Assembly: GCA_030040515.1 (NCBI GenBank)
Contig: JASHTO010000348.1
Span: 1 to 49,823 of the forward strand
Direction: 5' to 3'
Length of the DNA stretch: 49,823 nucleotides
Origin: Terriglobia bacterium
GTDB lineage: Bacteria; Acidobacteriota; Terriglobia; UBA7540
Part shown: piece by piece, positions 21,836 through 21,911 of the stretch
Layout: the number at the start of each line of letters is the position of its first letter
Position numbering within the stretch: the first letter of the stretch is position 1
Notes under the pieces: generated by a model
Told to the model about the DNA's origin: nothing
The model's input: only the letters and a program-made list of their open reading frames with translations
Database searches by the model: none
Program-made: the position numbers and the translations under genes

Positions 21836-21911
21836 GCGGGAGTAGCTCAGTTGGTAGAGTGCGGCCACTCCATGGCCGAGGTTGCAGGTTCGAGTCCTGC
21901 CTCCCGCTCCA
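21836..21911 (+). tRNA. tRNA-Gly (anticodon UCC) with non-canonical C33 and an A32/U38 pair
   Basis: 76 nt, cloverleaf folded by hand. Acceptor GCGGGAG/CTCCCGC, U8, A14, G18G19, D stem GCTC/GAGT. Anticodon stem CGGCC/GGCCG with loop A-C-U-C-C-A-U. T arm GCAGG-TTCGAGT-CCTGC. Discriminator U73 and an encoded CCA. The acceptor and D arm closely match classic bacterial tRNA-Gly. Confidence 0.85.

Follow-up and report, generated by a model that had tools for sequence, protein, structure and literature searches.

A tRNA-Gly(UCC) gene with C33 beside a Fem-like transferase gene in an acidobacterial polysaccharide cluster: a candidate private glycyl donor

In a contig of 49,823 nucleotides from a member of the Terriglobia (Acidobacteriota; contig JASHTO010000348.1 of assembly GCA_030040515.1), referred to in its entirety as the window, a single tRNA gene is found on the forward strand at positions 21836–21911. 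It encodes a glycine tRNA with the anticodon UCC and with C rather than U at position 33 of the anticodon loop, and it lies just upstream of the gene for a protein, P0001, whose predicted fold resembles that of the Fem-type aminoacyl-tRNA-dependent transferases. We conclude that this tRNA belongs, as an accessory, to an operon for an amino-sugar polysaccharide and is not the main decoder of GGA and GGG codons, and we put at about 60% the probability that it acts as a dedicated, private glycyl donor for the decoration of a glycan, a reading that draws on comparison of related loci and on structure prediction.

The gene is a genuine, extra tRNA-Gly(UCC) gene. It is 76 nt long, ends with U73 and an encoded CCA, and is the only tRNA gene that ARAGORN detects in the window (called as tRNA-Gly(tcc), + strand). 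The Rfam model RF00005 is covered over its full length with a score of 62.1 bits (gathering score 29). Standard tRNA numbering is obtained by subtracting 21835 from the window coordinate. The acceptor strands read GCGGGAG/CTCCCGC, U8, A14 and G18G19 are all present, and the T arm (21884–21900) comprises the stem GCAGG/CCTGC, with the pairs G49-C65, C50-G64 and A51-U63 (A51 at 21886, U63 at 21898), and the canonical T-loop TTCGAGT. The 5 bp anticodon stem (CGGCC/GGCCG) encloses a loop at 21867–21873 that reads A32-C33-U34-C35-C36-A37-U38, with C33 at 21868 and the anticodon at 21869–21871. A32 (21867) and U38 (21873) are Watson–Crick complementary, and in the minimum-free-energy structure calculated by RNAfold, which is a cloverleaf, this pair is closed, giving a 6 bp anticodon stem and a loop of 5 nt. 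A preliminary description of this DNA had listed the landmarks of a canonical tRNA, the unusual anticodon loop, the potential of A32 and U38 to pair and so shrink the loop to 5 nt, and the A51-U63 pair; all of these are borne out, the landmarks by direct reading as well as by ARAGORN and Rfam.

U33 is almost invariant in tRNAs, with C33 being known mainly from eukaryotic initiator tRNAs (PMC5041475). The window tRNA departs from this pattern of elongator tRNAs, with C at 21868, and is alone in doing so in its genome: T33 is found in the other 50 of the 51 tRNAs detected by ARAGORN. T33 is found also in all 51 other distinct tRNAs of the loci fetched for comparison, so that C33 occurs in none of 101 other tRNAs. 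The preliminary description had allowed for an error at this position. Logan contigs from four peat-metagenome runs of a single study (X1, which may itself be the source of the assembly, record 1; X2, record 4, 21300–21990; X3, record 13, 21647–22415; X4, record 18, 21783–22062) span the tRNA with zero differences, giving C and not T at 21868.

The source genome (G000) is a metagenome-assembled genome (MAG) of 777 contigs and 5.27 Mb, with 58.6% G+C and an estimated completeness of 80.6%. No second tRNA-Gly(UCC) was found in this assembly, and GGA accounts for 20.7% of its glycine codons. At face value this is the combination that the preliminary description had named as pointing to normal decoding, namely a sole copy in a genome where GGA is abundant, but a break in the assembly explains the absence. 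In relatives (other genomes of this genus, together with some from the class), the housekeeping tRNA-Gly(UCC) is a near-invariant 75 nt species with the loop CUUCCAA, and is always located within a cluster of the order Thr(UGU)-Tyr(GUA)-Gly(UCC)-Thr(GGU). The source assembly is without tRNA-Tyr and tRNA-Thr(GGU), whilst 188 nt separate its tRNA-Thr(UGU), which points outward, from the end of contig C351 (C351:1-263). The end of this contig is collinear with the cluster of the relatives and breaks off ~40 nt before the start of tRNA-Tyr, so that the canonical tRNA-Gly(UCC) falls in the assembly gap, just past the contig end. (tRNA-Trp is also missing from the source assembly.) Two relatives, G005 and G021, carry the canonical and the accessory tRNA-Gly(UCC) side by side in the same genome. 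By these comparisons, the window tRNA is not the housekeeping tRNA-Gly(UCC) and is instead a different, 76 nt paralogue that, of the genus's 29 species genomes, only G000, G005 and G021 possess.

The body of the accessory tRNA is closest to a GCC-type tRNA-Gly from a different family in the class, to which it is up to 93% identical, compared with 80–87% identity to the genus's own UCC tRNA. Its sequence thus marks it as an anticodon-shifted paralogue. When the class was searched by BLAST with the accessory tRNA of G005, the 28 further loci fetched contained GCC-type tRNA-Gly alone, and no new accessory copies came to light. Two other odd ARAGORN calls were noted in the source genome, an 88 nt 'tRNA-Ile(tat)' whose extra arm is long and which lacks CCA (C174:1201-1288) and a 'tRNA-Asn(att)' (C499:3332-3411). 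No member of the P0001 family is encoded close to either of them.

Across the loci examined, the accessory tRNA is represented by 11 distinct sequences, some retrieved through the neighbouring protein and others by a pattern search that itself fixed many positions, including A51, U63 and UCC. They come from lineages whose Fem-like proteins are 39–86% identical. All 231 of 231 stem cells are paired in these sequences, with compensatory double changes at 28:42, 29:41 and 49:65. The elements by which glycine tRNAs are recognised for charging are U73, the pairs G1-C72, C2-G71 and G3-C70, and the anticodon bases C35 and C36. The set is complete in the window tRNA and, like the CCA end, does not vary in the family. 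This pattern of variation indicates that the accessory tRNA is under selection for its fold and for its ability to be charged.

The anticodon loop presents a different picture. C33 is found in three of the 11 distinct sequences: that of the window (loop ACUCCAU), that shared by L063 and L075 (the same loop on an otherwise different backbone) and that of L069–L077 (loop UCUCCAA). Mapped onto the tree of the Fem-like proteins, the C33 label needs three changes, and the closest relatives of the window locus, L066 and L062, have U33; from this we judge that U33 has been replaced by C at least twice independently. The comparison of orthologous loci proposed in the preliminary description shows C33 to recur within the accessory family. 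Taken with the uniform U33 of the other tRNAs, this recurrence indicates that the constraint on U33 is relaxed in the accessory family. There is covariation, too, between positions 32 and 38, which form U-A, A-U or U-G.

The T-stem deviates as well. Relative to the canonical tRNA-Gly of the genus and to most of the GCC-type tRNA-Gly species, the accessory tRNAs replace G49-U65 with G-C (A-U in G021) and G51-C63 with A-U, and both changes are in the direction of weaker predicted binding to EF-Tu. All six sequences that were retrieved independently of the tRNA sequence have the A51-U63 pair, which the pattern scan imposed on the rest. Under the additive model of Schrader and Uhlenbeck (Table 2 of PMC3239215), the accessory T-stems have predicted binding energies of −9.6 to −9.7 kcal/mol (−9.6 for the window tRNA), 1.6 kcal/mol weaker than the −11.2 kcal/mol predicted for both canonical tRNA-Gly species of the genus (UCC and GCC). 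The corresponding values for staphylococcal non-proteogenic tRNA-Gly are −9.5 (predicted) and −9.6 kcal/mol (measured). For bacterial Gly(UCC) tRNAs as a class, the mean is −10.8 kcal/mol and the outlier cut-off 1.3 (PMC3239215); the window tRNA, at a predicted 1.2 kcal/mol weaker than the class mean, lies just inside this cut-off.

The accessory tRNA keeps company with the Fem-like gene. In G005, it lies just 5′ of the gene for a Fem-like protein 60% identical to P0001, and the same arrangement is seen in the metagenomic loci L060–62, L063–65 and L066 (84, 76 and 86% identity, respectively). In G021, where the Fem-like protein is only 39% identical, the tRNA is located ~420–490 nt upstream of the gene. 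A scan of metagenome contigs with a pattern for the tRNA itself, rather than for the protein, returned 13 loci, and wherever there was enough flanking sequence the Fem-like gene was always present in the same cluster. In all, accessory tRNAs were seen in this type of cluster in the window, G005, G021, L060–66, L067–69, L071–73, L075 and L077. In most of these the tRNA is the immediate 5′ neighbour of the Fem-like gene, whilst the preceding gene varies (methyltransferase, DegT or GFO); the order methyltransferase–tRNA–Fem-like found in the window is shared with G005, L060 and L063. Among 28 loci sampled through the protein, six have a tRNA near the Fem-like gene, clearly more than the chance expectation of ~1% for a distance of 500 bp or less, a rough figure based on ~50 tRNA genes in 5 Mb. 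No tRNA was found within 4 kb in 11 loci with relatives of P0001 (53–70% identity) or in six loci with metagenomic homologues, and five additional genomes from the genus likewise had none within ~1.5 kb. On the Fem-like protein tree the tRNA has a patchy distribution, and from this it is an optional accessory of the module and not a property of the enzyme family as a whole. The possibility that the tRNA marks an integration site or island boundary was considered and rejected: there is no second copy of its 3′ half in the window, and synteny between loci extends over the flanks on both sides.

Another atypical tRNA gene was seen in G021, at the same locus as the accessory tRNA-Gly. On contig C141 (L048:14162-14236, − strand), a tRNA-Thr(CGU) scoring 52.7 bits with Rfam, without G18G19 and with a bulged U in the T-stem, lies 4 nt past the stop codon of the Fem-like gene and just before an AsnB-like gene, with the accessory tRNA-Gly upstream. 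None of the genus's 28 other genomes contains a close copy of it.

P0001, the 297 amino acid product of the gene at 22122–23015 (+), is a putative Gly-tRNA-dependent aminoacyl transferase with a Fem-like tandem-GNAT structure. On its own, its sequence has no meaningful match in Pfam (at E-values up to 10), in NCBIfam or among the sequences of the PDB, and the family to which it belongs comprises more than 6000 metagenomic proteins, every one of which is nameless or annotated as 'hypothetical protein'. When 75 diverse homologues were compared with Pfam, 31 matched Acetyltransf_6 (PF13480; best E-value 5.5e-10), 21 matched FemAB (PF02388; best 2.7e-7) and four matched LPG_synthase_C, the C-terminal domain of MprF, with the matches being below the curated cut-offs in the ten checked individually. 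The AlphaFold2 model of P0001 (mean pLDDT 95.3) contains two GNAT domains in the Fem arrangement. The leading Foldseek matches to this model are Sba18 and Sbb17, followed by FemX of Weissella and by MprF, with FemA also matched; going by the model, the best structural matches are all aminoacyl-tRNA-dependent transferases. Tandem GNATs that depend on coenzyme A (CoA) match the model with scores of 14.8 at most and root-mean-square deviations of more than 6 Å. The relationship of P0001 to Fem and GNAT proteins thus becomes visible only through its homologues, the profile and the predicted fold.

The family alignment also contains a possible catalytic signature. F233 and K234 of P0001 are at least 90% conserved, and resemble, at the level of the motif, the Phe-Lys of Fem enzymes: the catalytic lysine of Fem-type enzymes is K305 in Weissella FemX and, preceded by phenylalanine, K329 (of F328-K329) in DhpH-C (PMC12945691). 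P0001 is the only member of its family in the source assembly. Together, the ranking of the structural matches and the adjacent tRNA gene suggest that P0001 uses an aminoacyl-tRNA as its donor.

How might tRNA and enzyme work together? Glycyl-tRNA synthetase would charge the accessory tRNA with glycine and the tRNA, transcribed ahead of the gene for the Fem-like enzyme, would in its glycylated form be the glycyl donor of that enzyme. The enzyme would then transfer the glycyl group to an amine on a sugar or on an intermediate of the glycan, and the most likely acceptor would be an amino sugar produced by the WbpB/E-like enzymes of the upstream genes. The EF-Tu-weakening T-stem, the A32-U38 pair and, in this lineage, the lost U33 would render the tRNA ill suited to translation, and its poor use there would keep the pool of Gly-tRNA available to the transferase. 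A private glycyl donor is the explanation that best accounts for the retention of fold and chargeability, the shift in the T-stem, the repeated loss of U33 and the Fem-fold neighbour. The suggestion of the preliminary description, that this tRNA has been diverted from decoding in the manner of the staphylococcal tRNAs, gains support from five directions: the existence of a second paralogue, the linkage to the Fem-like gene, the weak T-stem, the repeated appearance of C33 and the outcome of the two tests described above, in which position 21868 was not read as T and the seemingly sole copy was traced to a contig break. The diversion itself we infer.

Several observations weigh against this interpretation. 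In 22 of the 28 loci sampled through the protein there is no tRNA near the Fem-like gene, implying that the enzyme family needs no private tRNA. For some of the FemAB-like GNATs encoded in polysaccharide loci, the donor may be acyl-CoA. U33 is kept in eight of the 11 accessory variants, and all 11 have a 7 nt anticodon loop, UCC and A37; for the positions that the search pattern fixed, invariance is judged from the six sequences retrieved by way of the protein. The EF-Tu model was built on data from E. coli and Thermus, making the values for the accessory tRNA predictions. G18G19 and the T-loop TTCGA are canonical, unlike in the staphylococcal non-proteogenic tRNAs, and with such D- and T-loops the accessory tRNA may still decode. 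Finally, GGA makes up 29% of glycine codons in the cluster (15–28 kb of the window), above the genome-wide figure, as would suit a role in codon supply.

These points lead to an alternative in which the gene is an ordinary, additional decoding tRNA-Gly(UCC), carried with a horizontally mobile cluster, adding capacity for GGA and GGG codons and with C33 being nearly neutral. The canonical D-loop, T-loop, 7 nt loop and UCC of all variants and the U33 of most are in keeping with this, as are the codon frequencies, and ribosome-active natural tRNAs with C33 do exist, the eukaryotic initiator tRNAs among them (PMC5041475). We nevertheless consider it unlikely. The two T-stem changes both weaken predicted EF-Tu binding, by 1.6 kcal/mol in total, and losing U33 whilst gaining an A32-U38 pair would worsen decoding; the housekeeping copy is extremely conserved and was present in all relatives searched; and the adjacency to the Fem-like gene survives changes in gene order, which codon supply does not explain. 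That adjacency is also the difficulty for the proposal that the tRNA is a cis-acting element with no role as a donor, acting as a processing or punctuation signal for RNase P and RNase Z or as a promoter module for the distal part of the operon. Such an element would be expected to share the orientation of the operon, as the tRNA does, and the -10-like sequence 9 nt upstream, the spacer of conserved length (~200–217 nt in several loci) and the lack of a terminator-like site before the Fem-like gene are all compatible with it. A processing signal, however, needs no GlyRS identity bases, no C35 and C36 and no encoded CCA, the scan for sigma-70 promoters gave none by its criteria, and the specific link to a gene resembling those for aminoacyl-tRNA transferases would be left unexplained. 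A purely cis-acting role therefore appears improbable.

Very improbable, in our view, is that the gene is a decaying duplicate drifting towards a pseudogene, or that C33 is an artefact of sequencing or assembly. Redundancy with the housekeeping copy and the variation at positions 33 and 32/38 are in keeping with decay, but the stems are all paired, with compensatory changes, the gene scores 62 bits with Rfam, lineages with Fem-like proteins 39–86% identical have retained the paralogue family, and the C at 21868 is the same in the contigs of all four runs.

The private glycyl donor proposed here has an obvious precedent. In staphylococci, the non-proteogenic tRNA-Gly(UCC) species NP1–NP3 work with FmhB, FemA and FemB; their T-loops have TGC or TGT in place of TTC and lack Psi55, and S. 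aureus and S. epidermidis are the only species in which non-proteogenic tRNAs of this kind have so far been detected (PMC7826273). Like NP1–NP3, the accessory tRNA is an extra UCC paralogue that exists beside a proteogenic UCC isoacceptor, has a T-stem for which weak binding to EF-Tu is predicted (about −9.5 or −9.6 kcal/mol), has a 32:38 pair that extends the anticodon stem to leave a 5 nt loop, and is associated with a Fem-type transferase, here by gene linkage. It differs in being of independent origin, with a body nearest to acidobacterial GCC-type tRNA-Gly, and in that the window tRNA keeps TTC in the T-loop and G18G19, deviating instead in the anticodon loop (C33). Its gene is embedded next to that for the transferase, and the organism is a Gram-negative acidobacterium in which the presumed target is a polysaccharide sugar and not peptidoglycan.

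For the proposed acceptor chemistry, a parallel is provided by Orf11, Sba18 and Sbb17, the Gly-tRNA-dependent amide synthases of streptothricin-type antibiotics (PMC12945691; PDB 9wqy, 9wqw). Sba18 and Sbb17 bind the amino sugar streptothrisamine, and their relative Orf11 glycylates streptothrisamine from Gly-tRNA (PMC12945691), a reaction analogous to that suggested for P0001. These enzymes come from actinomycete antibiotic pathways, their sequence identity to P0001 is only 13–14%, and P0001 belongs to a separate family; no report of a dedicated tRNA gene for any of the three was found in the literature searched.

The individual features of the anticodon loop also have precedents. In tRNA-Ala(GGC) and tRNA-Pro, an A32-U38 pair tunes down tRNAs that, having G+C-rich anticodons, would otherwise bind too strongly (Grosjean and Westhof 2016, PMC5041475). 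The window tRNA shares the combination of a Watson–Crick A32-U38 pair and a G+C-rich anticodon, but whereas those tRNAs still decode, here the pair joins C33 and a weakened T-stem in a redundant paralogue. Natural tRNAs without U33 include eukaryotic initiator tRNA-Met (C33) and Candida tRNA-Ser(CAG) (G33) (PMC5041475), both eukaryotic and with special decoding roles, unlike the bacterial elongator-type tRNA-Gly paralogue described here. In a limited literature search, no account was found of tRNA genes located within polysaccharide clusters or next to genes of the Fem-like type.

According to Pfam annotation, the tRNA sits in a co-directional (+) cluster for an amino-sugar polysaccharide. Its upstream part (16013–21030), syntenic in G005, encodes in order a priming sugar transferase, a GFO/MocA oxidoreductase, a hexapeptide acetyltransferase, a DegT aminotransferase and a GT2 glycosyltransferase, of which the oxidoreductase, acetyltransferase and aminotransferase form a WbpB/D/E-like amino-sugar cassette. 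An S-adenosylmethionine-dependent methyltransferase gene (21138–21788, +; Pfam Methyltransf_31/12/25) is directly 5′ of the tRNA. A -10-like TAGAAT is found 9 nt upstream of the tRNA 5′ end (TAGAAT also in L060, CAGAAT in L066), in a region where a scan for sigma-70 consensus promoters returned no promoter by its criteria. The 210 nt spacer between the tRNA and the Fem-like gene (21912–22121, +) has, on alignment with related loci, patches of conservation. The terminator scan found two terminator-like sites, both on the minus strand, and none on the plus strand of the spacer, and for this reason the tRNA may be co-transcribed with the Fem-like gene.

Downstream of the Fem-like gene, an AsnB-like amidotransferase or amidoligase homologue is encoded at 23027–24832 (+; Pfam Asn_synthase and GATase_7), with a weak NCBIfam match to the XrtA/PEP-CTERM amidotransferase model. 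The protein starts VPGIVG and so is without the Cys2 nucleophile of the glutaminase domain. On this basis the enzyme probably cannot use glutamine; joining a different amine to an adenylated carboxylate may be its reaction. In nearly every locus examined, the Fem-like gene is closely followed by the AsnB-like gene, typically at a distance of ~5–40 nt, with or without the tRNA, and the pair is found also in two Thermodesulfobacteriota MAGs. It is usually located beside genes for an epimerase and a GFO oxidoreductase, as in the window, where an NAD-dependent epimerase/dehydratase and a second GFO/MocA oxidoreductase are encoded at 24822–27048 (+; Pfam) and recur in related loci.

Taken as a whole, the cluster invites a broader, more tentative proposal, to which we give slightly less than even odds: that soil Acidobacteria possess an undescribed system for the tRNA-dependent attachment of amino acids to surface polysaccharides, made up of a private tRNA, a Fem-like transferase and a Cys-less AsnB-like enzyme, with the glycine case representing an early or intermediate stage of privatisation. 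At such a stage the tRNA may be chargeable and still have its anticodon, whilst its binding to EF-Tu would already be weakened (through A51-U63 and G49-C65) and U33 would be in the process of being lost. The position of the tRNA upstream of the enzyme gene, together with the retained anticodon, would fit an early withdrawal from translation.

Should this be correct, the accessory tRNA would be a second, independently evolved case of its kind, making the withdrawal of a tRNA from translation a recurrent evolutionary solution, in this instance in a Gram-negative soil phylum, with the tRNA encoded beside its presumed enzyme and aimed at a polysaccharide. The glycine version would reveal the sequence of steps by which a decoding tRNA leaves translation, and the natural U33/C33 and 32:38 variants, set on one EF-Tu-weakened T-stem, offer a ready series for work on the avoidance of EF-Tu and the ribosome. 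For genome annotation, accessory tRNAs of this type inflate apparent isoacceptor counts. A function would be assigned to a family of more than 6000 proteins, and N-glycyl or other aminoacyl sugars made from aminoacyl-tRNA would constitute a new class of glycan decoration.

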